Positions 37,549 to 64,000 of a stretch of 64,000 nt of DNA are shown here, piece after piece (positions within the stretch are counted from its first letter, which is position 1; each line of letters opens with the position of its first letter). The notes beneath the pieces are model-generated. The model was given only the letters and a program-made list of their open reading frames with translations. It was not told the origin of the DNA and ran no database searches. Source of the DNA: an uncultured Candidatus Saccharibacteria bacterium (lineage in GTDB: Bacteria; Patescibacteriota; Saccharimonadia; Saccharimonadales; HK-STAS-PATE-42); assembly GCA_964461505.1 (NCBI GenBank), contig CAYWUW010000003.1, positions 37,680-101,679 of the forward strand. Direction: 5' to 3'. The translations under genes were made by a program, and so were the position numbers.

Positions 37549-37622
37549 AGTATTTTTTCTTTCTAATCCATCCATGGCCCTGGCAAAGATGGATCTTAAT
37601 TATTTAAGTTTGATTATAGACT

Positions 37623-37650: not shown

Positions 37651-37680
37651 TTAAAATTAAGATTTTATTTAATACAAAAA

Positions 37681-37743
37681 CTAAGAGCTACTTACCAAAA
37701 GCCAAGTAGTGTTCCAGTATAGAGCTGTATTAAAAATTAACAT
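37681..37743 (-). CDS. Candidate 20-aa leader peptide MLIFNTALYWNTTWLLVSSS (two Trp codons)
   Basis: ATG 7 nt downstream of a TATACT -10 box. TGG codons at 37716-37714 and 37704-37702. The ORF covers the antiterminator arm. Confidence 0.55.
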   Translation of the reverse strand: MLIFNTALYWNTTWLLVSSS

Positions 37744-45611: not shown

Positions 45612-45613
45612 AC

Positions 45614-47074: not shown

Positions 47075-47351
47075 TACTAGATATTAGTATGCCTTACAAA
47101 ATACTATTCAAAATAGCTGACACTGTGTTATCCTTATGTTTATATACAGATTAATTATATCTGCTGAACATGCCAGCTGTTAGGCAGTAACAGAAAATAC
47201 AATGAAATTATAGAGTGCGACGGCACAAGCAGATAAATACGTCCAAATACAAAAACAATACAAATTAATTACTTATAAACCTGGATACCCTAAATAGGTA
47301 TTTCTTAGGTGTTTTAGATGCGACCAAAATCGTATTGTTTTAACGTTCTTA

Positions 47352-48719: not shown

Positions 48720-49242
48720 AAAGTTAGAAAAAGGGCTAATAGAAGAACTGGAAAAGACTGGCAATGTATTTATAGCTTGCAATAAGGTTGCACTATCGCG
48801 CGCCACATACTATAGATGGAAAAATGATGACTTAGACTTCCGAAATAGAACTGACGAGGCCATAGAGATTGGTCGTGCGAATATGGCAGAGTTTGGAGAA
48901 TCTAAGCTTCTTAGAAACGTTGAGAATGGAGACCAGAGGGCAATTGAATTTCTGTTAAGGCATAATGATCCCCGCTATCGAAATATGAATGGCCGTGAAC
49001 TTCAGGAGCAAATAGATATAATTGAAGATAAGTATAGAAAAGATTTTGGCTTCTTATCTCAAATAACTACTGCTATATTTGATGCACTACCGGAAGAACT
49101 AATAGTTAAGATATTTAAGCTTGGTGATGGTATGAAAACACTCGATGAAGGACTGAGCGCTGCTGAACAGAAAAAAGTCAATGAAGTTTTGGCAAGCGCG
49201 TACCTATCTTCGGTTCTTAAAAGCCATAAAAAGAAGGACTAG
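48700..49242 (+). CDS. HTH protein resembling phage terminase small subunit / homeodomain-like regulators
   Basis: ACNKVALSRATYYRWKNDDLDFRNR... Confidence 0.5.
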   Translation: MKMRRTKKLEKGLIEELEKTGNVFIACNKVALSRATYYRWKNDDLDFRNRTDEAIEIGRANMAEFGESKLLRNVENGDQRAIEFLLRHNDPRYRNMNGRELQEQIDIIEDKYRKDFGFLSQITTAIFDALPEELIVKIFKLGDGMKTLDEGLSAAEQKKVNEVLASAYLSSVLKSHKKKD

Positions 49243-49297
49243 TGTTGTAACCTTTGATATTGAAACCTCAAGCTTATGGATGTTATTAATTATAGTA

Positions 49298-49867
49298 ATG
49301 AGCGTCTCTAGTTATAGACGTAATGTCGCCAATGGACACACTGGGCCAACAACCTCGACTTGCTTTCCTGCGGCACTTGAACAGCTCTCACCAAGACATG
49401 CATTTAGTGGAGACGTGTATCAAAGATACAGGGAGACTGTAGATGTAGTCTGCTCTCTTGAAGGTCAAGGACTTAGAAGAGTTAACCCCTTGTTGAAAGA
49501 TTTGTATGGGTATTTAGCTACAGAACTAGGATATTCATATGGTGACATATCTTTTGAGAGGCTTAGATCAATTGAAGAGTTTAGGGATAGAGTATGTGAT
49601 TTGCTCGCATCTTCTAGCAGGGTGGTAGTAGACATAATGACAGAGGGGTGCCATGGAGGTGCTCAAGGATATGTCCATTCGGTAGGTATATCTGCAGTAG
49701 GTGGCCTGTGCAATCAGATGGTTAGGCTCAGGAGCACATGGCTACCATCTGAGCTTACTGGTGTAATACCACTTGATTCAGTATTCCCCCACCTCGCTCA
49801 GCTCAAAGATCCGCCAAGGCAAAGATATGAATTTAATGATGCTAACTTAGCCGCCCTACCATCTTAG
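49298..49867 (+). CDS. Hypothetical protein
   Basis: ORF-track 49181-49867. The first part overlaps the previous gene, so an internal ATG was chosen. Confidence 0.35.
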   Translation: MSVSSYRRNVANGHTGPTTSTCFPAALEQLSPRHAFSGDVYQRYRETVDVVCSLEGQGLRRVNPLLKDLYGYLATELGYSYGDISFERLRSIEEFRDRVCDLLASSSRVVVDIMTEGCHGGAQGYVHSVGISAVGGLCNQMVRLRSTWLPSELTGVIPLDSVFPHLAQLKDPPRQRYEFNDANLAALPS

Positions 49868-49920
49868 GTTTTGCTTCTAGCGCTAGCTTAGCTCAAAACC
49901 TTTGCGGTATACTCTAAAAT

Positions 49921-50054
49921 GTCTAGGACATCCAAACAAACAGAGTGACTCGATCATTTATGTAGTTGTGCCATTAAAAGGGCAGCTACGTAAAAAAGAA
50001 TAGGCATAACTGCTTGTTTGGGTCCTAGACAGTCCAGCGTGGCTGTCCTTTTTT
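49921..50054 (+). ncRNA. Candidate structured small RNA or leader (about 134 nt)
   Basis: TATACT at 49908-49913. A 20-bp closing helix pairs 49921-49943 with 50010-30, with inner hairpins. Terminator hairpin at 50028-50047 followed by CTTTTTT. Confidence 0.35.
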
Positions 50055-50122
50055 ATATATAGAAAATAGATATAGCCTCCTGGAAGTTAATTAATAAAAG
50101 TTAATAACCAAAGGGAGGTTAT

Positions 50123-50419
50123 ATGGATCAAAGGTTAGCATCAGAGAAGGTGGTTGTTGCAGCACCAATGTCACTGGCTGGTTCTGCTGCTAGAATATGG
50201 AAGATTACAGACTTAGTGCCAAATGTATTTGTTAAATGGATGCTTTTAGTACCTATTGCACTCATGCTGATTATGATGGCATGGATGGTAGTGGCAGTGT
50301 GGTACATAATATTTGGCATACTATTAGTACCTTACAGACTTATTAGGAGGTCCGGGAGAAAGGGCAAAAGACAGGCTTTGCAGCACAGGGAGCTTTTAGA
50401 AAAGATAGGGGCAAAATAA
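50123..50419 (+). CDS. Small two-TM membrane protein
   Basis: 98-aa ORF with AAGGGAGG upstream. Confidence 0.5.
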   Translation: MDQRLASEKVVVAAPMSLAGSAARIWKITDLVPNVFVKWMLLVPIALMLIMMAWMVVAVWYIIFGILLVPYRLIRRSGRKGKRQALQHRELLEKIGAK

Positions 50420-50473
50420 TAGAAAGTGGTTATGTTTGGAGTAGCTGCTTCCAGCAGCTAGAATACTCTAATA

Positions 50474-51892
50474 ATGAGTGATACGTTCAGAAGCCCACTT
50501 TCTAGATACCCTAACATAGACGAGAGTAATTCCTTGCGAGTTAACGTAGCCGGCTTCTCTAAGCTAGACACGTCTAACGAACAGCTACAACAAGCCATCA
50601 GAGAACTTGTTGAGTTACGACAAGTTCTTTTAGTGGCCGAATCTACAGACCTAATCAACAGCTTCATTGAAGTAAGGAGGCTATACACTGAAGCCATTAG
50701 GTGGCTAGGTCTTGACCACCAAATCAATGACCTTGTAGTTGTACCCCCATCAACTGACTACCAGTCGATTGATCCAAACTCCGTTTCTTTATTTCAACAG
50801 TTTGTTAACTCAATTAAGTCTACCTATTTAAACACTCCCCAGTACTACGCCATACAGGCACAAATTGGGTTAGAAAAGAGTAGCAGGATACTACAGCTAG
50901 ACCTTGAGGCAGACAAACTATCGGACGAATTTAAGACTTCTTTACGAGAAGCCCAGAAGAGGTTGGCAGAGTCTACTGATAGCGATAAGAACGAGTTGCT
51001 TAGACAGCTGAACGATCTTGTCTCTACACAGAAGGCCTCTACCCAAGAGGCCACCACGGAAGCACTTAACTCCATCAAGCAAGCAAAGGCTCTAGAGATA
51101 TGGCATGAAGAGTACAAAAAGAATATAGAGCTTTACGAGTTGAAGCTAGACGGTCCACGGTGGAAGGCTCTTTCATTACGTGCTCGGCTGACTAACCTTA
51201 GGATAAGAACACAGGAACTAAAGTATGAACTAATTAAATTTAAGGAATCTGAACTTAGCCCCATAGATAACAAGTCTAGTAGGCCTGGCTTGAGGCAGGT
51301 TATGAAGCTACTGATAATCAATATAAAGTACCTTTGCTACCTAGGCTTTGTATCTATTAGATTTGCCATTCTAGCGGTTGTGGGGTCTGTCTCCTATCTA
51401 TACGGCAAGACCATTAGATCTGCAAGGGGCCAAAGGATAGTCTGGTTTGTTATATTGGGTTCTGTTCTTATAGGTCAGTCCTTGATATTTACCAGTGTGT
51501 TGCTGAACGGCAAGCTACATGATTTCCCCATACAGGACTTCATAAGAAGCCATAACCTGAACCTTCTTGTGAGCAATGAGTATGTATTGGCAAAGATAAG
51601 TATCTTCCTGGGCTTTATCCTAGTTCCCTCTCTTGGTTACACTTTTTCTAATAGAAACTTTAGGATTTACTCAAACTTGCTGGAACAATACAGACATAGA
51701 TACACGGTAGCCACCACCCTGCAGGGAGTACTCAGTAATATTACAGAGTCTGAAGACAATAAAGATGTAAGGACTCAGTTAGCCGGAGTAGCTGCCTTGG
51801 CAATGTTTGAAATGAAAAATGTAGGCCACCTATCCAAGAAGGATGGTGACTCTGTGCCACTTATGGGCGCCATACAGGGTATTTTCAAATAG
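50474..51892 (+). CDS. Hypothetical protein: N-terminal coiled-coil half, C-terminal multi-TM half
   Basis: 472-aa ORF. No family recognised. Confidence 0.5.
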   Translation: MSDTFRSPLSRYPNIDESNSLRVNVAGFSKLDTSNEQLQQAIRELVELRQVLLVAESTDLINSFIEVRRLYTEAIRWLGLDHQINDLVVVPPSTDYQSIDPNSVSLFQQFVNSIKSTYLNTPQYYAIQAQIGLEKSSRILQLDLEADKLSDEFKTSLREAQKRLAESTDSDKNELLRQLNDLVSTQKASTQEATTEALNSIKQAKALEIWHEEYKKNIELYELKLDGPRWKALSLRARLTNLRIRTQELKYELIKFKESELSPIDNKSSRPGLRQVMKLLIINIKYLCYLGFVSIRFAILAVVGSVSYLYGKTIRSARGQRIVWFVILGSVLIGQSLIFTSVLLNGKLHDFPIQDFIRSHNLNLLVSNEYVLAKISIFLGFILVPSLGYTFSNRNFRIYSNLLEQYRHRYTVATTLQGVLSNITESEDNKDVRTQLAGVAALAMFEMKNVGHLSKKDGDSVPLMGAIQGIFK

Positions 51893-51936
51893 CTAGCTTT
51901 CCTAAAACCTTCGCGGTATGATTGTTCGTTGCAGCC

Positions 51937-53238
51937 ATGCTGGACAATAATACTCAACAATTAAAATATTGCCTGTACGCAAGAAAATCATCTGAATCGG
52001 ATGAACGTCAGGCAATGAGTATTGATTCACAACTTGCCGAGATGAGATCTATGGCTGAGAGTGAAGGACTTAGCGTTGTATCAGAGCTGCAAGAAAGTCA
52101 TTCTGCTAAAGATTCTGGCCAAAGACCGTTATATAACAAGCTACTACAGGGCTTGAGAGACGATGAGTACAACGCAATCTTAACTTGGGCACCAGATAGA
52201 CTCTCAAGAAACGCAGGGGATCTAGGGGCAGTTGTAGACCTAATGGATCAAGGTAAACTTCTGCATATCAGAACCTACTCCCAGACATTCACTAACAACC
52301 CGAACGAAAAATTCCTCCTGATGATTCTCTGCTCTCAGGCCAAGCTAGAGAACGATAATAAAAGTGTAAATGTTAAGAGAGGAATTAGATCTAAATGCGA
52401 GATGGGCTGGCGACCAGGAGTTGCGCCTCTTGGGTATATTAATAGAGCCTTTGGAGGAGTTAAAGATATTATTCCAGACCCAGAGCGTGCAGAGATTATA
52501 ACCGAGATGTTTAGGAGGGCTGGGCAAGAGAATTGGAGTAGCAGGAGATTGAAAGTCTGGATGGATGAACAGAATCTTACGAGCAGAGCAGGTAAAACAG
52601 TTGCCGTAAGCCAAATCCTTAAGATGTTAAAGAACCCATTTTACTACGGTGAGTTTCAATACCCAGAAGAACCTGATGGTAAATGGTATAAGGGTGCGCA
52701 CGAACCTCTCATATCTAAGGAGTTATTCGACCTAGTACAAGAGACAAGAGGATTAGTTAAAGGCAAGTGGGGGCTAAAACAGTTTGCATTCCGAGGACTA
52801 CTTGAATGTGGAACTTGTGGGGCTGGAGTAACGGGAGAGGATAAATACAAGAAAATTAAAAGTGATGGATCTATCCGAAGGTATGTCTACTACAGGTGCA
52901 CTAAGAAGAAGGATGCCAAGTGTCCAGAAAAGTACATTGGAGAACCCGAATTAACTAGAGCGATCCTAGAACACATTGAAACTTCCGGTAAGGATATTAA
53001 AATATCCAGCGCATTAAGAGCTTCTTCAGAACGCTACACTGCGATGATGAAGACTATGTATGAATACCACAAAGTCAAGACAGAATTTGATGCCCCACTT
53101 ATCGAGTATGCTCGCTATGTTCTAGGAAAGGGTACCGAAGATGAGAAGAGAGCCCTGGCCAAAGGAATTGTGAGCAAGCTTGTTTTTAAGAATGGAAGAG
53201 TTAATAAGGTTCGGGAACCACTCGAAGACTTAATCTAA
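51937..53238 (+). CDS. Large serine recombinase
   Basis: YCLYARKSSESDERQAMSIDSQ (catalytic Ser region), resolvase, recombinase and zinc-ribbon (CGTCG...CTKKKDAKC) architecture. Confidence 0.9.
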   Translation: MLDNNTQQLKYCLYARKSSESDERQAMSIDSQLAEMRSMAESEGLSVVSELQESHSAKDSGQRPLYNKLLQGLRDDEYNAILTWAPDRLSRNAGDLGAVVDLMDQGKLLHIRTYSQTFTNNPNEKFLLMILCSQAKLENDNKSVNVKRGIRSKCEMGWRPGVAPLGYINRAFGGVKDIIPDPERAEIITEMFRRAGQENWSSRRLKVWMDEQNLTSRAGKTVAVSQILKMLKNPFYYGEFQYPEEPDGKWYKGAHEPLISKELFDLVQETRGLVKGKWGLKQFAFRGLLECGTCGAGVTGEDKYKKIKSDGSIRRYVYYRCTKKKDAKCPEKYIGEPELTRAILEHIETSGKDIKISSALRASSERYTAMMKTMYEYHKVKTEFDAPLIEYARYVLGKGTEDEKRALAKGIVSKLVFKNGRVNKVREPLEDLI

Positions 53239-53853
53239 ATAATTAGTATATTCTTTTATCAGAGCTGTTTCGTTAAGCCTCTTTTCCGATACGACTCTAT
53301 CGTATTTATGCCAGCCATTAAGGTCTTTAAGCTTAAACCTTACAGCACCTTCAGATAAATATTTGATAGCCCCGTCTCGAAGACGACCACTCATTTCTAT
53401 AAAATCAGGTCGGACCGATACGCTGAGTTCCTCGACTTTATTCTCGTCTAATTTTGACATTATTATACTCAAATTAACTGTATAGTCCTGGATGAAGTTG
53501 AGCTCCTTGAGACATTTCGTTGATAGCCAAACATGCTTTTTATAACAACTATGGAAAGTTTCGCCCCACCATTTTTCAAAGATGATTTTATTATTTACTA
53601 CGGCTACACCCCTAACCGGTCTTTCCACCTTGCTTGAATAGTGTTCTGTATTTTCAGGCATTACTACCGTCATCATAGTATCAGCAAGGTCTAGAGCACT
53701 CTCATGAGCATCTATTCGCCTATCAATAATCTTTGCCTTCTGCTGCTTCTTGAAACCGAGATTCTGCCGGAAAATCTCAAGGATTTGAGAAACTACTACC
53801 CCGAACAGAGTGCCTACCGCGGCAATGATACCAATATTATATTCACTACTCAT
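53230..53853 (-). CDS. Hypothetical protein with an N-terminal TM
   Basis: 207-aa ORF, convergent with the recombinase and overlapping it by 9 nt. Confidence 0.45.
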   Translation of the reverse strand: MSSEYNIGIIAAVGTLFGVVVSQILEIFRQNLGFKKQQKAKIIDRRIDAHESALDLADTMMTVVMPENTEHYSSKVERPVRGVAVVNNKIIFEKWWGETFHSCYKKHVWLSTKCLKELNFIQDYTVNLSIIMSKLDENKVEELSVSVRPDFIEMSGRLRDGAIKYLSEGAVRFKLKDLNGWHKYDRVVSEKRLNETALIKEYTNYLD

Positions 53854-54077
53854 GTAAGAATATTGTAACTCAACAATGCACTGCTAGAAACAGGTCTAGG
53901 AACTCGGTCAGCTTAGCTCCTACTTGATTGCGGTATGGCTTGTGTAAACTTCTGGGACTAAACAACAGGGATGTTCTAGATATTACTATACTTTTGTTGG
54001 TTCGAGTGTAATTTGAAGCCTTGTCGCAATAGAGGGATAGGTCACGAACTTTTATAACAGTGTTCGGGGTGATCTAG

Positions 54078-54108
54078 GGAAAAAGAAAAACCGATCATAG
54101 GGATCGGT
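54078..54108 (-). terminator. Rho-independent terminator downstream of trpS2
   Basis: Minus strand ACCGAUC-CCUAU-GAUCGGU followed by UUUUUCUUUUUCCC. Confidence 0.6.
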
Positions 54109-54225
54109 CTGTATCTGTTAGCTGCTGTGTTTGGCTCCGCATACGGGTCACGAACCATTTAACTGATAAAAACGAGACAAATGAGACACATTGAAGCAAT
54201 ATTTGATTTTAATTTTGTTTGTAGT

Positions 54226-55227
54226 TTACGAACCGTATAACCGCATTGCTTTTCTTACTTCTGCCATAGTTTCATTGACTACTTGTCTTGCCTTAGTGGT
54301 TCCGTCTTCTAGAATATTTTTTACTAGATCTGGCTGTAGCTCATATTCTTCTCGCCTTACACGGATTGGTTCTAAAAACGTATTAAGTACGTCCACCAGG
54401 TACTGTTTGACCTCAATGTCACCAACTTGACCATTGCGATAACGTTGCTTAAGAGCCTCGGTGGTTTTTTTATCAGTACCAAAAGCGTCGAGATATATAA
54501 ATACTGGGTTACCTTCTACCTTACCAGGATCAGTTGTGCGTTGACGTGTTGGATCGGTATACATTTTCATGACCTTTGTCTCAACTTCATCATGACTATC
54601 TGATAAGTAGATAACGTTGCCTAGACTTTTACTCATTTTTGCACTACCATCTGTACCCACCAACCGTGCAATACGTCCAGTCAGGATTTCTGGCATATTG
54701 AAAGTATGGCCATATATTGTATTAAACCTATTAACGACTTCACGAGTTAATTCAACCATTGGCGCCTGGTCATCACCAGCCGGAACTAAGTCAGCGTTAA
54801 AGCCTAATATGTCTGCTGCTTCAGATAATGGGTAATTTACAAAGCCTACGGGAACATTTGCACCAAATCCCTTTTGCTTCATCTCCGATTTAACAGTAGG
54901 ATTACGTTGCAAACGCGCAAGACTGACTAAATTCATAAAATATACAGTAAGCTCAGCGAGCTCTGGAATTTGTGATTGCACAAATAGAACTGCTTTACTT
55001 GGATCTAATCCAACCGCTAGGTTGTCCAGGGCAACTTGATAGACACTTTCACGAACTTTATCAGGATTGTCAAAATTGTCCGTAAGGGCTTGAACATCAG
55101 CCTGCATGATAAATGTTTCGTATTCATCTTGTAGCTTCACTCGGTTCTCCAGCGTCCCTATATAGTGGCCGAGGTGCAATTTACCCGATGGTCGGTCACC
55201 AGTTAAAATTCTCTTTCTCGTATTCAT
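54226..55227 (-). CDS. trpS: Tryptophan--tRNA ligase, second (auxiliary) copy
   Basis: ILTGDRPSGKLHLGHYIG (HIGH), KMSKS. 333 aa with AGGAG SD. Confidence 0.9.
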   Translation of the reverse strand: MNTRKRILTGDRPSGKLHLGHYIGTLENRVKLQDEYETFIMQADVQALTDNFDNPDKVRESVYQVALDNLAVGLDPSKAVLFVQSQIPELAELTVYFMNLVSLARLQRNPTVKSEMKQKGFGANVPVGFVNYPLSEAADILGFNADLVPAGDDQAPMVELTREVVNRFNTIYGHTFNMPEILTGRIARLVGTDGSAKMSKSLGNVIYLSDSHDEVETKVMKMYTDPTRQRTTDPGKVEGNPVFIYLDAFGTDKKTTEALKQRYRNGQVGDIEVKQYLVDVLNTFLEPIRVRREEYELQPDLVKNILEDGTTKARQVVNETMAEVRKAMRLYGS

Positions 55228-55826
55228 TTCTTTTCTCCTAATTTAGTTTGTAATTGCGTAATTGTTTGTAAAAGTAGTTCTTTACTTTTAATGCTAGTTA
55301 TTTGAGAGCATCCAAAACTTAGGACAGCCACTTCCTGTGAATCCGGTTTCAACTTACCTAAATAAGAACTTCTGATTCCCAGAATACCTAATATGCCCTT
55401 CTCGGTCACAGCAATAATTGAATGTGGCTTTATTGGCGTAGAGCCATTTTTAGTTTTCAGGTATTCGCCTTTGACTGAAAAACGAATTTCAACTGAATTA
55501 AACTCATCAACCGAGAATACAGTGATTGGTATATCTGTATAGTAACTTGCTTTAATTATGAGACCAGTCAGCGGATCAGGGACAGGTAAATCTTTGATTG
55601 TAGGGTAGCTTTTGAGTCTTTCGACTGCAAGCAAGCTGCTCTCTGCAAACTTCTCTCGAAATTTGCTATATGAAGCTTTTTCTTGCCTACTCAACCTTAA
55701 GCCGTCTAAGGCTTTAAGGTTTAAAGAACCTATGTCGTCTGAAATCTCACGAACTTGAATCACTTTATAAAAAACTTCAAGCTCAGGAATCACTTTACGG
55801 ACGGAAGCGTCAAGCACTACTTTCAT
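55224..55826 (-). CDS. Hypothetical protein, possibly B3/4 (PheRS-beta editing-domain-like) fold
   Basis: By-eye resemblance to stand-alone B3/4 proteins (MKVVLDASV..IPELEV...; ..VTEKGILGILGIRSS..). ATGA overlaps with both neighbours. Confidence 0.35.
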   Translation of the reverse strand: MKVVLDASVRKVIPELEVFYKVIQVREISDDIGSLNLKALDGLRLSRQEKASYSKFREKFAESSLLAVERLKSYPTIKDLPVPDPLTGLIIKASYYTDIPITVFSVDEFNSVEIRFSVKGEYLKTKNGSTPIKPHSIIAVTEKGILGILGIRSSYLGKLKPDSQEVAVLSFGCSQITSIKSKELLLQTITQLQTKLGEKK

Positions 55827-57406
55827 GGTTCACTCCTAACATACATTGGTCGAAATGCTGCAAGACGTTTGCCCTTGTCATCTCCAAATACAGCTGCGTC
55901 CCTATTAAAAGGCACTGCTCGTAAGTATATGCTCGACACATCTATTCCAGCTTTTCGGCTCCTTTCCACAGCATTTGATAACTGGGCAAAGCTGTGTAGT
56001 GAATAGCGAAAAAGTGGCACTGGTGTTTTTTGGCCAGGTACAAATGCATACAAAATATCGGTATCCGACGGAACCTTGCCTAGTTCCAACATCCTGAACA
56101 ATTCTTCGTGAATCCTTGGTGCATTATCTTTATCGATTTTCTTAGGACGAATCAAGTTCAGTAATTTATCCAAATGTCGCCCTGCTACTTGGAACGTTGG
56201 AAGTGTTGTTGCCTCGTGTTCAAATACTTTTAACAGCGGGTCTGGGAATGTGGAAATATCGGCTCTCACTACTTTTTCTGTAAACGCAGCATACCCTCCT
56301 GATTCAATGTCAGGGTTTAGTACGATTACACTTGTATCGTCTGTAATTGCATCGTATTGAGAAATACCAAGAACAGTAACTTTGAAGCCAATTTTTTCTA
56401 ACATTGAGGTTAGTGATTTTGTCTCATTTACCTCAAGCATATCGGTAGAACTTTCCAGTGACTCGTCTTTAACAATAATGGTTATATGGTCTGTTGCTAT
56501 ATGCTTTTCGATGGCTACCCCCACCTGTGCCTTTAGCTTTTCTACTATCTGAGCAACTTGTTCAAGTGGCCGATTTTTAGCTCTCTCTATCTCAGTCAAA
56601 AAGAATCCAACATCAGGCATGTTTATCCTTTCGATAGCAACATTTTCGTCAGTATCAACGAAGCAGTCTGGCTGAAAATATAGTAAATCATCAGCTATGC
56701 CTTGAGGGGACTGAGGGTCTCGAGCAGCAAGAGCAATAGCCTGCCGAAATGGTACTCCTGCTTTGATATGCTGGCGTGCCACAAAAGCATAGGATCTCAC
56801 ACGCATCAAAGCCTCTTGCACGGCTGGTTGAGTATCGGCAGAAAGCACTGCTCCAGTTTCAACTGGATTAATCAGGAAAAAACCACTTCTGCTACCAACA
56901 GCTGTATCCGGTAGTTTGACACCTTTTTCTTCAGCTTGTTCCACAAACTCATTCATAAGGCCAAATGTTTTTCCTAAATTATTTTCTGCATAAGCTGCTG
57001 TTACAGACATTGCTAACACACCAAGTTCTGGGTGTTCAGCTATACCCTCTTTGACGCTCTCTTCTAACAAAGCATGTGGAACTGGCGCTGATACCTCAAA
57101 CGAGCCTTGTTGAGCAACAGATCTATCAACAGTAAAAGCTGTAAAATTACCACCAGGACCTTGGTCCATTCTCAGGAACCGATATAATCCTGCGCCTCGT
57201 AACCTTTGCTTAAGTTCAGGTCCAACGCTCGGAAAGAATGCTGCCCTTAGCTCAGCAGGTGAGTTTTCACGAAGTGACATAAAATTTTCGTATGCCTTAA
57301 ATTCATCATTACCATTTATCATCGGATCTGCCGCTTCATAATATGTATCCATACTGCCTGCAGCCATTTTTACTCTTCCACCTTCTGCTATTTCAAATTC
57401 ACTCAT
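55823..57406 (-). CDS. Hypothetical 527-aa protein, no recognisable family
   Basis: Long ORF with GGAG SD; first gene after the attenuator. Confidence 0.6.
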   Translation of the reverse strand: MSEFEIAEGGRVKMAAGSMDTYYEAADPMINGNDEFKAYENFMSLRENSPAELRAAFFPSVGPELKQRLRGAGLYRFLRMDQGPGGNFTAFTVDRSVAQQGSFEVSAPVPHALLEESVKEGIAEHPELGVLAMSVTAAYAENNLGKTFGLMNEFVEQAEEKGVKLPDTAVGSRSGFFLINPVETGAVLSADTQPAVQEALMRVRSYAFVARQHIKAGVPFRQAIALAARDPQSPQGIADDLLYFQPDCFVDTDENVAIERINMPDVGFFLTEIERAKNRPLEQVAQIVEKLKAQVGVAIEKHIATDHITIIVKDESLESSTDMLEVNETKSLTSMLEKIGFKVTVLGISQYDAITDDTSVIVLNPDIESGGYAAFTEKVVRADISTFPDPLLKVFEHEATTLPTFQVAGRHLDKLLNLIRPKKIDKDNAPRIHEELFRMLELGKVPSDTDILYAFVPGQKTPVPLFRYSLHSFAQLSNAVERSRKAGIDVSSIYLRAVPFNRDAAVFGDDKGKRLAAFRPMYVRSEP

Positions 57407-57420
57407 AATATTTCTCCTTT

Positions 57421-57451
57421 AAAAATTAAAAGACTCCCTTCCCGGGAGCCC
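57421..57451 (-). terminator. Intrinsic terminator in the operon leader (attenuator)
   Basis: Minus strand GGCUCCC-GGGAA-GGGAGUC followed by UUUUAAUUUUU, immediately before the AAAGGAG SD of the 527-aa gene. Confidence 0.65.
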
Positions 57452-57480
57452 TAAGTTACATTTATTCAAAATTTTACAAC

Positions 57481-57561
57481 CTAAATAGACTCCCGTGTGT
57501 AATGAGAGCTACGCCAAGCACCTAGTTCACCACAACTAACTAATAATTCAATATGACTCAT
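57481..57561 (-). CDS. Candidate 26-aa leader peptide MSHIELLVSCGELGAWRSSHYTRESI (one Trp codon)
   Basis: The ATG overlaps the trpR-like stop (ATGA) with GAGGA 7 nt upstream. TGG at 57516-57514. The last codons cover the antiterminator arm CGGGAGUC. Confidence 0.5.
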   Translation of the reverse strand: MSHIELLVSCGELGAWRSSHYTRESI

Positions 57562-57815
57562 AATTGCTTCCTCAAAACTTTGAAACGATCCTGACTTAGT
57601 TCTTTCGAGCCACGGGTAACCGTAGCAACTCCTACCCCAAGATCACTAGCAATTCTAGCCTGTGGTTCACCGGCAATTAATCGCTTGATAATCTCTACTC
57701 GTTGAGCTATTTCAGCACGTTCTTTATCGGTTGTCACACCAATTAGAAAGTCCTCAAGCAGCGCTCTATCTCGAGTAGCGTATATAATATTGATTACGTC
57801 ACCAAAATTTGACAT
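57558..57815 (-). CDS. Trp repressor family protein (TrpR / YerC-YecD type)
   Basis: ..TTDKERAEIAQRVEIIKRLIAGEPQARIASDLGVGVATVTRGSKEL aligns with the E. coli TrpR helix-turn-helix (..GIATITRGSNSL). Confidence 0.8.
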   Translation of the reverse strand: MSNFGDVINIIYATRDRALLEDFLIGVTTDKERAEIAQRVEIIKRLIAGEPQARIASDLGVGVATVTRGSKELSQDRFKVLRKQL

Positions 57816-57821
57816 AGCTAT

Positions 57822-57850
57822 ATACTAGCATACTAGTACGTTAGTGTCAA
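57822..57850 (-). promoter_or_regulatory. Promoter TTGACA-17-TAGTAT overlapped by a TrpR-operator-like palindrome
   Basis: Minus strand GTACTAGTATGCTAGTAT matches the E. coli trp operator GTACTAGTTAACTAGTAC at 14/18 positions with the same CTAG-N4-CTAG spacing. The ATG is 6 nt after the -10. Confidence 0.55.
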
Positions 57851-57893
57851 TACATTTCTAGATTTTTGTGATTATTTATTTGCTGTTCTTGAG

Positions 57894-59342
57894 TCAGATA
57901 CGTCGTATCTCGCGACCTTGACTATCTTTTTGGACTTTTGGAACTTTATTTTTGTCTCCAAATTTAAAGTCAAAATCTCTGATGAACTTTGGAACCGAAG
58001 TATCGCCTTCACGCATTGGTACGAATACCCGAAGCAGTGGATTCATTTCCCCGCTTAGTACCGGTATGCTAGTTTTCTTAACTTTGCCACTCTTAAGTGT
58101 TACTTCTGCTGGCACACTGCCGAGCATGAGCTTATCGAAGTAGACCTGTACAGATTCACGCATGTTACGGGCATTCTGCTGAGTACTTGGCTTTTCGGTT
58201 TGCTGGGTGGGTTCTTTAGGCTCTACTTTTGGAACATAGCCTTTTTTTATACGCTGTTCAACTAATTTCTTTAGGTCTTCTTCACTTTCGTAAGCCCTGA
58301 GGCTGCCTGACAGAAATCCGAGCCGGTAGCTCACGCCTGCACTCATGACTCGCCAGTTAGTGTCTTCGAGTACTTTTTCAATTGCCTTATGTAAAGTTTT
58401 CTTGCTTTGATATTCCTCGCGATCATCTTTGGTATCCAGACAGTTGAAGCTCAGTGTGACCTCACGGCCAAGCTGTGGGTCACCGAGCTTAAAGTCACTG
58501 TAACCGTTTTTGGTAAAGACTGGTTCAAGTAATTCTTTGAGCTGAGCAATTTTGAGTTTCTTAACTTGCTTAATGCCGTCATAGACATCGGCATGTTGAA
58601 CCTTATCTTCAACTGATGCATTGAGGTTAGCCAGACGTTCGAAGTGTTTGAGCTTCTGGTCATATCTAAACATCATGTCGCTTCCGAATATGAAGCGTTT
58701 GCGATCTAACTCTAAGTACGGGTCAACTGGTTCAGGTTCACTTTCAGTGTCGCTTAAATCTAGGGTTTCGGTTTTAATGTGCCCGCATTTCTCGCAGGTT
58801 TCAGTCCAGGTGATGATGTCCTGCTTTTTGGTGTGTTTTGAAATAGTTTTGCTACCACACTTTTCACACTCGCGTTTGGCGCCCTCCCATTCAGTGTCAT
58901 CTTCCCAAAGCGCCCTGCGTTTATTACAAGCTTCGCATTCGAACATTATGAGAATGTTATCTTCTTTATGATTATCACGGTGCAGGTAGTCTTTACTCAC
59001 CACTTTCATATCTTTACCGCAGGCTCGGCAGAATGTTCCACCTGCGATATGAGCTGAAGCAAGACGTTCATCTTTTTTCTGGTCTTCTGCCATCCACTTG
59101 GCAATAGTAGCTCCCCGATTTGCGGCTCGTTCGGCAGCGGCAGACTCAACAAACAAGAAGTAGTACTGGCTGTAGTGCAGATACCAACCTGTTAGCCTAT
59201 CTGTTAACTCCTTCTTGCCGAGCTTCTTCTCCATTGTAGTGAAAGTTTCGTTGACGAGGCTTTCACCTGATCGGCACTTGGAAACAGTGGCATCGTCATA
59301 ACGTTCTTCGTAATATTCACGACTTTTGAGATACGTGTACAT
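57894..59342 (-). CDS. Hypothetical protein with two CxxC...CxxC zinc-ribbon pairs
   Basis: FCRACG...CEACN...CEKCG...CEKCG. 482 aa. Confidence 0.55.
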   Translation of the reverse strand: MYTYLKSREYYEERYDDATVSKCRSGESLVNETFTTMEKKLGKKELTDRLTGWYLHYSQYYFLFVESAAAERAANRGATIAKWMAEDQKKDERLASAHIAGGTFCRACGKDMKVVSKDYLHRDNHKEDNILIMFECEACNKRRALWEDDTEWEGAKRECEKCGSKTISKHTKKQDIITWTETCEKCGHIKTETLDLSDTESEPEPVDPYLELDRKRFIFGSDMMFRYDQKLKHFERLANLNASVEDKVQHADVYDGIKQVKKLKIAQLKELLEPVFTKNGYSDFKLGDPQLGREVTLSFNCLDTKDDREEYQSKKTLHKAIEKVLEDTNWRVMSAGVSYRLGFLSGSLRAYESEEDLKKLVEQRIKKGYVPKVEPKEPTQQTEKPSTQQNARNMRESVQVYFDKLMLGSVPAEVTLKSGKVKKTSIPVLSGEMNPLLRVFVPMREGDTSVPKFIRDFDFKFGDKNKVPKVQKDSQGREIRRI

Positions 59343-59384
59343 ACATTAATGATAAGCCTGTTCACTATTTTTCAACACCATGTA

Positions 59385-59407
59385 CTAAAAAGGCCCTCCG
59401 TAGAGAG
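59385..59407 (-). terminator. Rho-independent terminator after the DUF2188-like gene
   Basis: Minus strand GGCUCUC-UACG-GAGGGCC followed by UUUUU. Confidence 0.5.
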
Positions 59408-59431
59408 CCCTTCTAACGCTACTGTTTGCGA

Positions 59432-59692
59432 TTACCCACGCGGTGGGAACGGATCATTACCGTAAGTTTCGCGTTCAGCAATAGTGCCGTCAGCGTTGTG
59501 AATTATTAGTTCACTCGGCTGGTTTGCCTGTGCTATGCGTCGTCCTTCTGCAATAGCGGTGGCCTTGAGGCTATAATTACCAAGAATTCTACCCTCAAAC
59601 TTTAGCTGCCAGTTAGTACCGATCGGGACTACATGAAACATTTTACGTGCCATATCTGTTTTAACAGTTCCTTTCCGCGGCGGAATTACCAC
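59432..59692 (-). CDS. DUF2188-like small protein
   Basis: FHVVP..WQLK.EG....Y..K..AI..GR.IA. pattern. The real start is probably an internal ATG (59653 or 59641). Confidence 0.6.
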   Translation of the reverse strand: MVIPPRKGTVKTDMARKMFHVVPIGTNWQLKFEGRILGNYSLKATAIAEGRRIAQANQPSELIIHNADGTIAERETYGNDPFPPRG

Positions 59693-59898
59693 TCAATGAT
59701 ATTGTGGTATCATAGGAACTATACAATTCGTTCAGGAACTTTTTGTATAAGGAAGCGCTGTACAGGCGCTTTTCCTATTTCTACCCTCAGGGTTCCTGCC
59801 CCGATTACCTCTAGAATACACCCATTTGTTGGTAATTGCAACATTGTACTGTGTCCCAGATTATTGTTTTTGCGTCCCAGCTATGTTACTATAGAACC

Positions 59899-60942
59899 AT
59901 GAAGGAACAAATGCGCAAAAAAAACATACTCAACCTCATTAAGTACTACGCCGAACACAATGACGCGGGCTTTCGTGATGAAGCGTATAATATTGCTCGC
60001 CTATTTGACCAGAGCGGAGATCCGCAATTGGCCGAATACATCATGGCCCTGCTCTCAGGCGCTAATACGTTCGTACCGCAAAACCATGAATATGAATCTC
60101 CCTATTTTCATAAGGTAAACCTGGCTGGTGATTCACTACCACTCCCCACCTCCATAAAGAACGACGTGTTCGGTGCGATCAGTGCGGTTAACCATCATGC
60201 TGGAATAAATAAATTTCTATTTGAAGGTGATCCCGGGACCGGAAAGACTGAAACCGCAAAGCAAATGGCACGCATATTAGAGCGTGACTTGTATTTGGTA
60301 GATTTTGATAGCGTTATTGATAGCAAGCTTGGCCAGACCTCCAAGAATATAGCATCAGTATTTCAAGAGATACGTGCTCTGCCTAATCCAGATAAGGCGA
60401 TAATTCTGTTTGACGAGATTGATGCTATCGCCCTAGACAGAGTTAACTCAAACGATCTGCGAGAAATGGGTCGCGTTACTTCTTCGGTTCTTAAAGGGCT
60501 CGATGGGCTAGGAGATACTGTCGTATTTATAGCAACTACCAACCTATTCGGTCAATTTGATAAGGCCTTGACGAGAAGATTTGATTCAATTATTAACTTT
60601 AACCGATATAGCAAAGATGAATTAATTGATGTAGCCGAAATAATCTTGAATGAGCTTCTGGGTAGGTTTAAGTTTGCCGGAAGGAGTATGCGCCTCTTTA
60701 GAAAAATCGTAGCAACTATGAAGCACATTCCCTACCCTGGTGAGATGAAGAACATAATCAAGACAGCTATTGCTTTTAGTGACCCCTCAAACGAGTATGA
60801 CTACCTTAAAAAGCTCTATGAAACCGTTCACGGTGGTGTCAGTGACCTGAAACAACTACAAGAAGAAGGCTTCACCATTCGGGAGATCGAAATTCTTACG
60901 GGAGTATCAAAGAGTAGAGTTGCCAGGGAGCTGCAGGAATAG
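59899..60942 (+). CDS. AAA+ ATPase (IetA-like)
   Basis: Walker A GDPGTGKTE, Walker B ILFDEIDAI. Directly followed by an S8 protease gene. Confidence 0.75.
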   Translation: MKEQMRKKNILNLIKYYAEHNDAGFRDEAYNIARLFDQSGDPQLAEYIMALLSGANTFVPQNHEYESPYFHKVNLAGDSLPLPTSIKNDVFGAISAVNHHAGINKFLFEGDPGTGKTETAKQMARILERDLYLVDFDSVIDSKLGQTSKNIASVFQEIRALPNPDKAIILFDEIDAIALDRVNSNDLREMGRVTSSVLKGLDGLGDTVVFIATTNLFGQFDKALTRRFDSIINFNRYSKDELIDVAEIILNELLGRFKFAGRSMRLFRKIVATMKHIPYPGEMKNIIKTAIAFSDPSNEYDYLKKLYETVHGGVSDLKQLQEEGFTIREIEILTGVSKSRVARELQE

Positions 60943-60945
60943 ATA

Positions 60946-63234
60946 ATGAACAATATACTGCAGCTTAAAGGCAACCTTAATAAGCGAAAAAGTGGTGGTA
61001 GACCTGGACCGCCAAACATGCCCAAAAGTAAAAGTGCGTCTGTCGATGCTAAGCACTTGGATAAACTTATTTCTGAGTTGAATACCTTGGGCGAATTCTG
61101 GCGAAAAGAGACTGTGATTGGTGGTGCGCTGGTGGACGTGCACTATATTACGGTCGTTGCGAAAAGCAATAGAATTAGCAGGATTTTTTATAATGGCGAG
61201 AATCAAAAATCTAATGACTCAATTGTGGGGGCTCATTTTGTTGATGCTGACACGTCAAAACCAAAACACGTGATTACTCACTATGTTACTGAGGCTATCA
61301 TTCAAGATTCTGTTGATAAGTTAGCCATTAGTAAGAAAGTTCTTAATGATGAGTTCGGCGGTACTATCAACCATGATGATATAAGCAAAATCAAAGATAA
61401 AAATATAAACTTCAAAAAGTATGGCATTAGCGAAAATGTCTTTTTGAATATAGTTGTTGATTCCCATTATGTCAGTAGTTTTGATATTCCTAGAAACAGC
61501 GCCAACGCCACAGGAGAGCAGTTAGTTACCATATATCGAACCGACGAGGACGCATCTGATATTCTCAGTAAGATCGGCATTGATACTCTGGGCAAGAACT
61601 TAAACAAAACTACTCTACTCTTGTATCCAGATGATGTAAAAACTTTGCAAGAAAAGGCCCCCTACTTGATAGCGATGGCGGTAGAAAATATCTCAGAGCT
61701 AGATCTAGAAGATATTGTTGGTAGCAGTAATAAAAGTCGGGAAACTCCATACATACCCACGCCGCAAAATGAACCAACAATTGGGGTTATTGATACATTG
61801 TTTGACGACAATGTGTACTTCTCTGAATGGGTTGAATATGTACCTATGGTAAGTTCTGAAATTATTGACCCGAAAGATCATAAAGATCCGGCAGATTACA
61901 GCCACGGAACTGCCGTAACTTCAATTATTGTTGATGGTCATAACATAAACCCAGATCTAAATGACGGCTGTGGCAGGTTCAAGGTCAAACATTTTGGCGT
62001 AGTTGGTAGTAAGCCTTTCAGTTCGTTCACCGTCATCAAGGACATACAGGAGATAGTGAAAAAGAACCCTAACATCAAAGTGTGGAACCTATCACTGGGA
62101 TCAACAAAGGAAGTTCATGGAAACTTTATCTCTCCTGAAGCGGCAGCATTAGATCAAATACAATGTGACAGCAATGTTATTTTTGTAGTTGCGGGCACCA
62201 ACAAGCCTGATGACCGCAAGGAGCCAATGCGTATAGGTGCACCAGCAGATTCAATAAACTCAATTGTAGTAAACTCTGTGAACAAATCTCGCGATCAAGC
62301 TTCCTATTCTAGAACAGGAAGAGTTCTTTCCTTTTTTAACAAACCAGACGTCAGCGCAATAGGTGGTGATGTCGGTGGTAACGACGAAAAGATACGCGTT
62401 TGTGAGCCAAATGGAGAGGCTTTCGTTTCAGGAACATCATTTGCAGCTCCATGGATAGCAAGAAAACTGGCCTATTTGATTGAAGTTTTGGGCCTGAGTC
62501 GCGAAGTCGCAAAAGCCTTAATTGTTGATGCTGCAGCAGACTGGGATGATACCGTAAACAATCAAGCTCTTGCTCCCTTAATTGGCCATGGTGTTGTACC
62601 AATAAAAATTGATGATATCGTGAAATCAAAAAACGACGAGATTAAGTTTATCATGAGCGGTACTTCAGAGTTGTACGATACCTACGCATATAACTTACCA
62701 GTACCCATAAACAAAGGTATGCACCCCTTCGTAGCAAAAGCTACTCTATGCTACATCCCCGAATGTTCTGCCAATCAAGGCGTTGACTACACAGACACAG
62801 AGCTAGATGTTTCTATAGGTAGAATCGCGAAGCTTAGAACTAAAGATGGTGTGCCACAATACGGCATAAATACTATTAATAAAAATGTGCAGACCGTAAG
62901 TGGCTCTTGGACCTTAGAAGGAGATGCCAGAAAGCTCTTCCGTAAATGGGATAACACGAAGCACATCCGTGAAAAGTTTGGAGATGACCTAAGACCCAGA
63001 AAGTCGTATGAAAGTGGAATGTGGGGAGTAAGCGTTAAGCGGAAAGAGCGTCTGGAGAAGAAAAAGCCTGTAAGATTTGGGCTAGTTGTTACTCTGAAAG
63101 AGGTAAATGGCGTTAATAGGATCAACGATTTTATACAGAAAGCCCGTCTAGCCAACTGGGTTGTTAGTGAAGTAAACGTAGACGCTCAAGTTGACATATA
63201 CCAGAAGCTCCAAGAAGAAGTTAAGTTCGAGTAA
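60946..63234 (+). CDS. Subtilisin-like S8 serine peptidase (IetS-like)
   Basis: Catalytic triad motifs IGVIDT (Asp), HGTAVTSII (His), GTSFAAPWIA (Ser). 762 aa. Confidence 0.8.
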   Translation: MNNILQLKGNLNKRKSGGRPGPPNMPKSKSASVDAKHLDKLISELNTLGEFWRKETVIGGALVDVHYITVVAKSNRISRIFYNGENQKSNDSIVGAHFVDADTSKPKHVITHYVTEAIIQDSVDKLAISKKVLNDEFGGTINHDDISKIKDKNINFKKYGISENVFLNIVVDSHYVSSFDIPRNSANATGEQLVTIYRTDEDASDILSKIGIDTLGKNLNKTTLLLYPDDVKTLQEKAPYLIAMAVENISELDLEDIVGSSNKSRETPYIPTPQNEPTIGVIDTLFDDNVYFSEWVEYVPMVSSEIIDPKDHKDPADYSHGTAVTSIIVDGHNINPDLNDGCGRFKVKHFGVVGSKPFSSFTVIKDIQEIVKKNPNIKVWNLSLGSTKEVHGNFISPEAAALDQIQCDSNVIFVVAGTNKPDDRKEPMRIGAPADSINSIVVNSVNKSRDQASYSRTGRVLSFFNKPDVSAIGGDVGGNDEKIRVCEPNGEAFVSGTSFAAPWIARKLAYLIEVLGLSREVAKALIVDAAADWDDTVNNQALAPLIGHGVVPIKIDDIVKSKNDEIKFIMSGTSELYDTYAYNLPVPINKGMHPFVAKATLCYIPECSANQGVDYTDTELDVSIGRIAKLRTKDGVPQYGINTINKNVQTVSGSWTLEGDARKLFRKWDNTKHIREKFGDDLRPRKSYESGMWGVSVKRKERLEKKKPVRFGLVVTLKEVNGVNRINDFIQKARLANWVVSEVNVDAQVDIYQKLQEEVKFE

Positions 63235-63241
63235 CGAGGTT

Positions 63242-63778
63242 ATGCCGACGCCAAAAGTTCAGAAAATATTAAAAAGACTCTTGCTTGACCCTGAGTTTCA
63301 AAAGCTGTGTGCCGAAGCACAGGCAGATCAGAAAAACCTGAAATTGTATGTTGCCCAGGCTCGTAAACAGTTTAATCTTTCACTGTACTGGGAGATTTTA
63401 CTGCAGCATATCCTAATGCTTGGAAAGTTTGACGAGAAAGTCCTGCATAGCGGACTTACAATTGACATCGAGCAAGACCCAGTTACTAAGCAGAATTATT
63501 ATAAGATTGCCGTCTATCCTGAGACTACTCAACGAGAGGTGATCGAAACATATGGCAGAATTACTAGATTCTATAAGCAGGCAGATCAAACAAGGAATGT
63601 CCGATCTGCGAAACGTGATGAGATTGATTACAGAGCTTTCAGCCTTCACCAAAATGGCAAGAGCTATAAAGAGATCGCCGATATTCTATCTAGCGAATCT
63701 GGAGAGAACGGTGATGTCTTCGAAGCCAGCGAAATACCAAATTTAATCAAAAGAGCGAAACAAAAGTCACTGCGTTAA
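63242..63778 (+). CDS. Hypothetical protein with a C-terminal HTH-like segment
   Basis: MPTPKVQ... start with GAGG upstream. ..GKSYKEIADILS.. resembles a sigma-70 region 4 / LuxR-type HTH. Confidence 0.45.
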   Translation: MPTPKVQKILKRLLLDPEFQKLCAEAQADQKNLKLYVAQARKQFNLSLYWEILLQHILMLGKFDEKVLHSGLTIDIEQDPVTKQNYYKIAVYPETTQREVIETYGRITRFYKQADQTRNVRSAKRDEIDYRAFSLHQNGKSYKEIADILSSESGENGDVFEASEIPNLIKRAKQKSLR

Positions 63779-63851
63779 GCGATATCAGTTAGCGCAGTGT
63801 AAGCTACTACGCTTTTTGTCACAATCCTTCTTATTAAACAAGGAGGATGGT

Positions 63852-64000
63852 ATGACGGAGATGGATATTAAACAAGTTAGTGTGGGCTCACTTAAGGCCA
63901 GCACCTATAACCCGAGAAAATGGGATCAATCGGCAACTGAGGGTTTGACCGAGAGTATCAAACGCTTCGGCTTAGTCGATCCCCTACTAGTCAACGGCTC
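63852..64000 (+). CDS. Second ParB-like nuclease domain protein (5' part only; runs off the right edge)
   Basis: AAGGAGG SD. MTEMDIKQVSVGSLKASTYNPRKWDQSATEGLTESIKRFGLVDPLLVNG parallels the N-terminus of the 47352 gene. Confidence 0.7.
   Translation, partial: MTEMDIKQVSVGSLKASTYNPRKWDQSATEGLTESIKRFGLVDPLLVNG

Follow-up and report, generated by a model that had tools for sequence, protein, structure and literature searches.

The 64,000-nt stretch of DNA analyzed here (the window, to which all coordinates refer unless another locus is named) comes from an uncultured Candidatus Saccharibacteria bacterium and carries, entirely on the minus strand, an operon in which a short leader open reading frame (ORF) and a candidate transcription attenuator follow a gene resembling the tryptophan repressor gene trpR. 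The trpR-like gene (57815..57558), the first of the operon, encodes 85 amino acids (aa) and its product matches the Pfam family Trp_repressor (PF01371, E 2e-13). The first gene that would be regulated by the leader encodes a 527-aa protein (57406..55823) and has its own Shine–Dalgarno (SD) sequence, AGGAGA, at 57418..57413. It is followed by a gene for a 200-aa protein with a weak B3/4-like match (55826..55224), which overlaps the genes on both sides, and by a second tryptophanyl-tRNA synthetase (TrpRS) gene (55227..54226, 333 aa), the last of the operon, behind which a terminator-like hairpin and U tract (54110..54088) close the unit. The candidate attenuator is an intra-operon element, located between the putatively autoregulated trpR-like gene and the genes for the 527-aa protein, the 200-aa B3/4-like protein and the second TrpRS.

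The leader ORF (57561..57481) has 26 codons and a stop and encodes MSHIELLVSCGELGAWRSSHYTRESI. Its ATG overlaps the TGA of the trpR-like gene (ATGA), and its SD sequence, GAGGA (57573..57569), lies within the 3' end of that gene, 7 nt before the ATG. Codon 16 is UGG (57516..57514), the putative regulatory Trp codon. Segment 1, GCUCUC (57509..57504), is the anti-antiterminator arm and starts 7 nt after the first base of the UGG. Segment 2, CGGGAGUCU (57495..57487), covers leader codons 23-25 and is the antiterminator 5' arm; segment 3, AGGGCUCCCG (57452..57443), serves the antiterminator as its 3' arm and the terminator as its 5' arm; and segment 4, GGGAGUCUU (57438..57430), is the terminator 3' arm. 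In the antiterminator, CGGGAGUC(U) of segment 2 is complementary to (A)GGGCUCCCG of segment 3, with 37 nt between the arms. The terminator hairpin (57452..57430), a stem of 9 pairs with a 5-nt loop, runs into the U tract UUUUAAUUUUU (57431..57421), followed by AGGAGA and the ATG at 57406. The heptamer GGGAGTC makes up the 5' arm of the antiterminator and again the 3' arm of the terminator; it occurs three times on both strands of the window, two of these being here, on the same strand and 56 nt apart. None of 200 shuffled sequences folds as well as the 93-nt switch region (z = -2.6). A preliminary description of this DNA had placed the ATGA overlap with its GAGGA, the 26-codon ORF with its UGG, and the terminator hairpin and U tract just before the SD of the 527-aa gene exactly where we find them. 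It had also proposed complementary antiterminator arms, which are present, but at a distance of about 30 nt. Its likening of the whole to classical trp-type attenuation agrees with the comparative evidence given below, but it overlooked segment 1, with which the element becomes a full four-segment attenuator.

We read this element as a transcription attenuator of the classical trp type, ribosome-mediated and based on a leader peptide, and from the sequence comparisons we hold this reading to be probable at about 0.82. Of the parts by which such an attenuator is recognized, the window has a short ORF with an SD sequence, an intrinsic terminator, an antiterminator that shares an arm with it, and a 1:2 helix abutting the putative regulatory codon; regulatory codons are usually tandem or enriched, and the window has a single one. 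In the proposed mechanism, transcription would begin at a promoter under the control of a TrpR-type operator, and a ribosome ending translation of the trpR-like gene, or one loading at GAGGA, would start the overlapping 26-codon leader. When charged tRNA-Trp is plentiful the ribosome would pass UGG-16, reach the stop codon and cover segment 2, so that segments 3 and 4 could pair and RNA polymerase would terminate at the U tract. When charged tRNA-Trp is scarce the ribosome would stall with the UGG in its A site and cover segment 1, leaving segment 2 free to pair with newly made segment 3, by which the terminator would be blocked and the downstream genes transcribed. If the leader is not translated at all, 1:2 and 3:4 would both pair and termination would follow. 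Both the stalling at the single UGG and the response to charged tRNA-Trp are predicted on the basis of sequence.

Homologous loci were gathered by scans of genomes and metagenomes and by exact-protein look-ups, and conservation was assessed in a set of 14 distinct Saccharibacteria-type loci including the window, in which the 527-aa proteins are 59-86% identical. A leader ORF of 22-27 codons is found at the same place in all 14. Its frame is free of stops in every locus, while the other two frames hold 0-4 stops each; an AGGA or GAGG motif lies within 12-15 nt of its ATG in 14/14, and in 12 loci the ATG overlaps the upstream stop (ATGA in 8, TAATG in 2 and an 8-nt overlap in 2). Over the 12 codons before the Trp codon, third positions differ 446 times, as against 358 and 281 for first and second positions, and the peptide motif T-N-F-G-Q-Q-G-A-W is retained despite synonymous changes. 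Because of the open frame, the SD sequence, the stop overlap and the third-position excess, we argue that the leader ORF is probably translated and that its translation is coupled to that of the trpR-like gene. The UGG is invariant in the 14 loci, standing exactly 10 sense codons before the stop, and in two of them (L001 and L038) it is a tandem UGG-UGG. No match to three of the leader peptides was found in Pfam and NCBIfam scans.

MAFFT alignments of the entire leader region misplace locus L034 and shift segment 4 where loop lengths differ, and base pairs were therefore counted on a gapless alignment of the four spliced segments (A3). On this alignment, which was built with the model in mind and whose pair counts lean towards it, the terminator helix 3:4 is paired in 90% of cells (66% in the best slid control), with 9 cells changed on both sides, and its pairing and covariation scores are reached by 0/500 shuffles. 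The position just outside the GGGAG/CUCCC core of the terminator appears as A-U, G-C, C-G, G-U and U-A, and every locus has 4-7 U in a row behind the hairpin. Helix 1:2 is paired in 82.7% of cells against at most 58% in slid controls, a value that 24/500 shuffles reach, and helix 2:3 in 80% against at most 56%, with an invariant core. Two lines of evidence are independent of A3. RNAalifold predicts the 1:2 helix exactly without any hint, and in L034 the four segments have changed in concert (ACUUCU / GGAAGU / CUUCC / GGAAG): the GGGAG core of segment 2, invariant in the other 13 loci, is GGAAG there, with matching changes in its partners. This four-way change goes beyond the needs of the terminator, since the terminator alone would need only two of the four changes. 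The preliminary description had named homologous leaders as the place where the small ORF and the alternative pairings should be sought, and both are kept in the 13 other distinct loci.

Free and ribosome-constrained folds were computed with ViennaRNA for the 14 loci. In the free RNA, 1:2 together with 3:4 is formed in most of them. It had been claimed that a ribosome reaching the stop codon would mask the antiterminator arm; with the stop codon in the A site the antiterminator is indeed absent from 14/14 folds, and the terminator is the surviving hairpin in all 13 loci that could be scored (the L034 sequence ended before the terminator). Segment 1 occupies +7 to +12 from the first base of the UGG and segment 2 begins at +21, so that segment 1 would be inside the footprint of a ribosome stalled at the UGG and segment 2 would stay free. 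When segment 1 is masked and the transcript ends before segment 4, the fold of lowest energy is 2:3 in all 14 loci. The 2:3 helix is also the minimum-energy fold of the window RNA.

Several observations weigh against a classical attenuator. On full-length RNA with the ribosome at the UGG, only 4/14 loci have 2:3 as the fold of lowest energy, and in the other 10 the terminator is more stable. Taken with the 14/14 obtained before segment 4, this means that the switch must be kinetic, as it is in the classical model. The leader of the window has a single Trp codon, a caveat that the preliminary description had rightly raised, and this is so in 6/14 loci; a lower sensitivity is to be expected from a single regulatory codon than from tandem codons. 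In 6 further loci the sole other Trp codon lies inside segment 2, where stalling would favour termination. Covariation in homologous leaders, which is evident for the terminator, is not significant for 2:3 (329/500 shuffles reach the pairing value and 163/500 the covariation value), the 2:3 core being invariant save in L034, from which all of its covariation comes. L030 and L002 have a weak terminator stem of 4 bp, and the conserved N-terminal half of the peptide would not be needed by a leader that purely counts codons. Finally, the leader region matches no Rfam family: a cmscan of 50000..64000 on both strands, with E up to 1, gave only a chance match to the long non-coding RNA family HOTAIR_2, and neither Trp_leader (RF00513) nor T-box (RF00230) was matched. 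Among these points, the single regulatory codon and the invariant 2:3 core are the main uncertainties.

Variant leaders bear on the question of whether the peptide or the RNA is under constraint. Leader peptides generally end ...RESI or ...WESI, and their Ser-Ser and (R/W)-E-S residues are the translation of segments 1 and 2. The leader of L034 ends instead ...WRTSIILEVYF and keeps the order UGG, segment 1, segment 2, segment 3/4. A variant leader in L027, MNNQITTQTWRTSYIIGRFIWRMPK, located between a DAHP synthase gene and an AstE/AspA-like gene, has the same order of UGG and segments, with a stop 7 codons further on and the ending ...GRFIWRMPK. From L034 and this second leader of L027 it is likely the RNA that is constrained, and not the peptide. 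Different C-termini combined with the same RNA order weigh against two rival readings that are taken up below, namely a precursor of a peptide that is ribosomally synthesized and modified post-translationally (RiPP), or of the type used by peptide aminoacyl-tRNA ligases (PEARLs), and a TnaC-like arrest peptide. In L027, a Saccharibacteria-type contig, an operon for aromatic amino acids contains two successive attenuators. The DAHP synthase gene is preceded by a leader rich in F, Y and W, MVKQAINQFYAFWFTPSLAWRFASIYQ, and a terminator (1564..1700, plus strand), and the second Trp leader (3113..3258, plus strand) precedes the AstE/AspA-like gene and the 527-aa homologue.

Genes distantly homologous to the 527-aa gene (24-39% identity) have unrelated tandem-Trp leaders with terminators directly upstream. 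In L003 the leader MNTNNVSFWWQIS comes after a trpR-like gene, in L018 the leader MTRISKNIVWWNAD lies upstream of the 527-aa homologue, and in L019 a 10-bp antiterminator and then a terminator come after the leader MNKSNNNNWWDDLLW, in a locus arranged as trpR-like - leader - trpB - 527-aa homologue - ... - TrpRS. About 15 loci in metagenome-assembled genomes (MAGs) of gut Alphaproteobacteria (L004-L016, L024 and L025) contain a conserved small ORF in the region ~90-170 nt before the 527-aa homologue; it ends ...F(F)WWH(C/S) and lies 91-111 nt upstream of that gene. A weaker, terminator-like hairpin UGGCAC...GUGCCA, followed by a U-rich stretch, extends over the second Trp codon and also over the stop. 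Attenuation may be simpler here, with two states only, the terminator being blocked by the stalled ribosome itself.

The window holds a further example. Its other trpS gene (36523..37575, minus strand), whose product is 26% identical to the operon copy, has an attenuator of its own at 37743..37618 (minus strand), with the leader MLIFNTALYWNTTWLLVSSS and two UGG codons. In the free RNA it folds into 1:2, a hairpin containing the second UGG, and the terminator. With a ribosome at the first UGG an 11-bp antiterminator, UGGUAAGUAGC / GCUACUUACCA, is formed that invades the terminator CCUCCG...CGGAGG-U6; the z-score of the region is -2.9. A promoter-like TTGACT-17-TATACT ends 7 nt before the ATG of this leader, which may be read from a leaderless transcript. 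Based on the unrelated WW leaders at the distant homologues and on this second trpS attenuator, Trp-codon attenuation is a recurrent device in this organism and around the 527-aa family.

The proteins that the attenuator would control are less easily placed. For the 527-aa protein, 48 homologues were found in a large protein collection, the closest named ones being from Candidatus Saccharibacteria; the family extends over Saccharibacteria, MAGs of gut Alphaproteobacteria and a few other lineages, and its genes nearly always stand behind a leader ORF with Trp codons. The protein matches no Pfam (even at E 10) or NCBIfam family, and a profile search against PDB sequences gave no hit. Its AlphaFold2 (AF2) model is confident, with a predicted local distance difference test (pLDDT) of 91.8 and a predicted TM-score (pTM) of 0.91. 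The best PDB matches of this model in Foldseek are the tRNA-dependent dehydratases NisB (6m7y_A, E 3e-6) and MadB (query TM-score, TMq, 0.51); the NisB/MadB matches range over E 3e-6 to 9e-5 and TMq 0.44-0.51, and the NisB match has a root-mean-square deviation (rmsd) of ~13 angstroms and covers only part of NisB. Glutamate-cysteine-ligase-like and glutathione-synthetase-like proteins come next. In other loci the neighbours of the family are trpB, DAHP synthase or an AstE/AspA-type deacylase. In L022 (952..4935, plus strand) and L023, both metagenome contigs of high G+C content, a 46%-identical homologue directly follows a 1327-aa ORF that may be nonribosomal-peptide-synthetase-like, as judged solely by a GDL/...GRxD-type motif in the L023 DNA; neither a trpR-like gene nor a Trp leader was found in these two loci.

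The 200-aa protein of the window matches Pfam B3_4 at E 9e-4, and among 14 homologues 6 match this family, the best at E 7e-6. Its AF2 model, made from a four-sequence alignment, is poor (pLDDT 49.5), and a profile search of PDB sequences gave no match. B3/4 is an editing-type domain of phenylalanyl-tRNA synthetase, and the B3/4-like protein encoded beside TrpRS, in the window as in its relatives, is free-standing. The second TrpRS itself is clearly assigned (Pfam tRNA-synt_1b, E 1.8e-59; TIGR00233, 288 bits with a cut-off of 176.75), as is the product of the other trpS (TIGR00233, 285 bits). The TrpRS of L019 (5011..6477, plus strand) has an N-terminal fused tRNA_edit domain of the YbaK type (Pfam E 3.5e-15). 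TrpRS is in this way linked with editing-type domains of two different folds, YbaK-type in L019 and B3/4-like in the window; to our knowledge, no editing domain is known for TrpRS.

This cargo raises the question of whether the product of the small ORF is a precursor or scaffold peptide used by the 527-aa enzyme, as in LanA/LanB or PEARL-like systems. The hairpin would then be a partial terminator that sets the precursor-to-enzyme ratio, an arrangement that could coexist with attenuation. Such a role would fit the closeness of the confident 527-aa model to NisB and MadB, the TrpRS and the B3/4-like editing-type protein encoded in the same operon, and the conserved N-terminal half of the peptide with its excess of third-position changes. 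It would also fit the finding that PEARLs take Trp from Trp-tRNA and add it to a scaffold peptide (PMC11117183, PMC11962472). Yet the C-terminus of the peptide is unrelated in L034 and L027, even though these loci keep the RNA segments as well as the enzyme (59% and 71% identical, respectively), and an AstE/AspA-like gene lies between leader and 527-aa gene in both. The peptides of the distant homologues are non-homologous and have only WW in common, the L019 leader precedes trpB and not the 527-aa homologue, and the conserved Ser and Glu codons are accounted for by segments 1 and 2. The lack of a Lant_dehydr or any other Pfam match at E 10 and of a PDB profile match, as well as the large rmsd and partial coverage of the fold match, also speak against it, and we consider a precursor peptide improbable.

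Another hypothesis is that the leader is a TnaC-like arrest peptide, which would sense free tryptophan or an inhibitor, stall the ribosome at the stop codon, keep segment 2 masked and so enforce termination; it has the same regulatory direction (off at high Trp). The fixed distance of 10 residues between the Trp and the stop in 14/14 loci could be taken in its favour, as could some conservation around the Trp, G-(A/S/T)-W, but segments 1 and 2 and the stop are themselves fixed in position, which explains the spacing fully. The hallmark of TnaC is W-x3-D-x7-P followed by the stop, with a Rho-dependent read-out. The leaders analyzed here have no Asp four residues past the Trp and no C-terminal Pro, the last residue being I, V, M, T, A or F, and the read-out is an intrinsic terminator. 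L027 keeps the UGG and the segments with its stop 7 codons further on, and both the tandem-WW relatives and the distant loci with WW near the stop fit codon-based sensing. An arrest peptide therefore seems to us less likely still than a precursor.

It might also be supposed that nothing is regulated here, and that a leaky intrinsic terminator follows the trpR-like gene with the small ORF and the alternative pairing as its by-products. One sequence with one Trp codon could be chance, the folding z-score of the whole 171-nt region is only -1.17, and the 2:3 covariation is not significant. The conservation across 14 loci of the ORF, the UGG, its spacing and segment 1, together with the four-way change in L034, the rarity of the duplicated GGGAGTC in the window and the analogous WW leaders in unrelated sequence contexts make this very hard to sustain. 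The least credible alternative, a T-box, TRAP-type element or other known riboswitch that senses tRNA-Trp or Trp directly, could appeal to the common T-box regulation of TrpRS genes in Firmicutes (PMC1262725, discussion) and to the terminator/antiterminator pair shared with those elements, but the Rfam scan gave no relevant match. As individual candidates, a T-box was rejected on the ~75 nt from leader stop to U tract, which is too short, and on the missing covariance model (CM) match, and a TRAP site on the irregular spacing of its GAG/UAG triplets.

Apart from the attenuator, the operon appears to have a second layer of control at its start. A promoter TTGACA-17 nt-TAGTAT with an extended TG (57850..57822, minus strand) carries a TrpR-type operator-like sequence, GTACTAGTATGCTAGTAT (57839..57822, minus strand), of CTAG repeats with an 8-bp period that overlaps the -10 box. 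The promoter/operator sequence TTGACAC-N5-(Y)RTACTAGTRTGCTAGTAT is kept in 11 related loci, and the operator-like CTAG repeat region is shared with L001, L002, L028, L030, L032-L036 and L039. In 9 of the 11 Saccharibacteria-type loci shown, the ATG of the trpR-like gene stands 6 nt past the -10 box with no SD sequence, and from this spacing a leaderless trpR-like mRNA is expected. The trpR-like protein scores 46.5 bits with NCBIfam TIGR01321 (TrpR), under the cut-off of 67 and above its YerC/YecD score. The gene has both features by which we assign it to the TrpR family, the Trp_repressor domain of its product and the operator-like CTAG repeats at its promoter, and it is probably autoregulated through this putative operator. 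A trpR-like gene heads 13/14 loci, and in L040 an unrelated 92-aa ORF takes its place.

The name trpS2 operon, used in the preliminary description, is right in that the second TrpRS is real, but trpS is found only in some of the loci. Since several relatives lack it, and the conserved core consists of the 527-aa and 200-aa genes, the unit is better named the trpR - leader - 527-aa - 200-aa (- trpS) operon. The genes that flank the trpR - leader - 527 - 200 cassette are different in every related locus, so that the cassette seems to be mobile. In the window it lies within a variable, island-like region (44412..53238 and 59836..63234) with type I restriction-modification genes (HsdS, HsdM), a ParB-methylase fusion and, one after the other, an AAA ATPase and a subtilase. 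A 472-aa ORF without a Pfam match (50474..51892) stands beside a large serine recombinase (51922..53238). A megablast of 53000..60000 against plasmid and phage records gave no match.

What the operon is for can be addressed only tentatively. The 527-aa family looks Trp-linked, as it stands behind independently evolved Trp leaders and in the company of trpB, DAHP synthase or a deacylase. A speculative extension, to which we would give only a minor chance, is that the attenuator is the charged-tRNA-Trp sensor of an undescribed tRNA-linked tryptophan module made up of the 527-aa enzyme, an editing-like partner and the second TrpRS. The gene content and the structure model suggest for such a module a possible starvation-induced route that makes, salvages or proofreads Trp-tRNA. 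In a sub-variant of this idea, the 26-residue leader might double as the substrate peptide of the 527-aa enzyme.

Leader-peptide attenuation is textbook knowledge, and the mechanism in the window adds no new principle. What is of more interest is that a single genome appears to have both of its TrpRS genes under attenuator control, which would imply tight coupling of transcription and translation and sensing of tRNA charge in reduced epibionts that depend on host tryptophan. The Trp leader also tags an uncharacterized and widespread family, that of the 527-aa protein, as tryptophan-related, and its NisB-like fold, in the company of TrpRS and editing-type domains, is a lead to a possibly new tRNA-dependent activity. 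In this sense the cargo (the 527-aa protein, whose predicted fold is NisB/LanB-like, together with the B3/4-like protein and the second TrpRS) is more interesting than the attenuator itself. No description of an attenuator in Saccharibacteria or in the candidate phyla radiation was found in the literature that we searched.

By comparing the locus with known systems its position becomes clearer. With the trp operon of E. coli (TrpL and TrpR) it has in common the short leader ORF with Trp codons, the four segments (1:2, 2:3, 3:4), the intrinsic terminator and a second control layer in the form of a TrpR-type repressor at a CTAG-repeat operator over the -10 box. The TrpL peptide of E. coli contains ...WWRTS, and the leaders of Saccharibacteria show the similar local context W-R-S/T-S. 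In contrast to E. coli, there is one Trp codon in the leader of the window where TrpL has two, the attenuator lies past the repressor gene on the same transcript with its ORF overlapping the stop of the trpR-like gene, none of the regulated genes is for Trp biosynthesis, and there is no similarity in sequence or by CM (no Rfam match).

The LanB and PEARL systems (PMC11962472, PMC11117183) resemble the locus in the NisB-like predicted fold of the 527-aa protein, in the small ORF upstream and in the tRNA-related genes downstream. They differ from it in that the 527-aa protein belongs to no sequence family and is shorter (527 aa against about 800-1000 aa), and in that the small ORF is apparently an RNA-constrained leader and not a conserved substrate peptide. 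Closer in its logic is the auxiliary TrpRS of Streptomyces: classical leader-peptide attenuators lie upstream of trpS2 / trpRS1 (Seliverstov et al. 2005, PMC1262725), and experiments on attenuation at the auxiliary TrpRS gene are credited, in the citing paper PMC4787780, to Vecchione and Sello 2010 (J Bacteriol 192:3565). In both cases an attenuator precedes an auxiliary TrpRS gene and would induce it when the charging of tRNA-Trp falls. Unlike in these Actinobacteria, a trpR-like gene precedes the leader in the saccharibacterial window, and the TrpRS gene is the last of three regulated genes and missing in several relatives.

The nearest parallel in gene order is the Chlamydia trachomatis arrangement trpR - intergenic region - trpBA, in which a putative 59-aa TrpL with non-consecutive Trp codons and alternative hairpins has been described, unvalidated and rated a poor attenuator (PMC7755916). 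There, as in the window, the repressor gene comes first, followed by a putative leader region, and in Chlamydia then by genes for Trp salvage; in L019 the order is literally trpR-like - leader - trpB. Unlike the chlamydial TrpL, the leaders of Saccharibacteria have 22-27 codons and a clear terminator and are conserved across many loci, so that the repressor gene, the coupled leader and the cargo described here can be seen as a clean and conserved version of what had been predicted tentatively for Chlamydia trpRBA.

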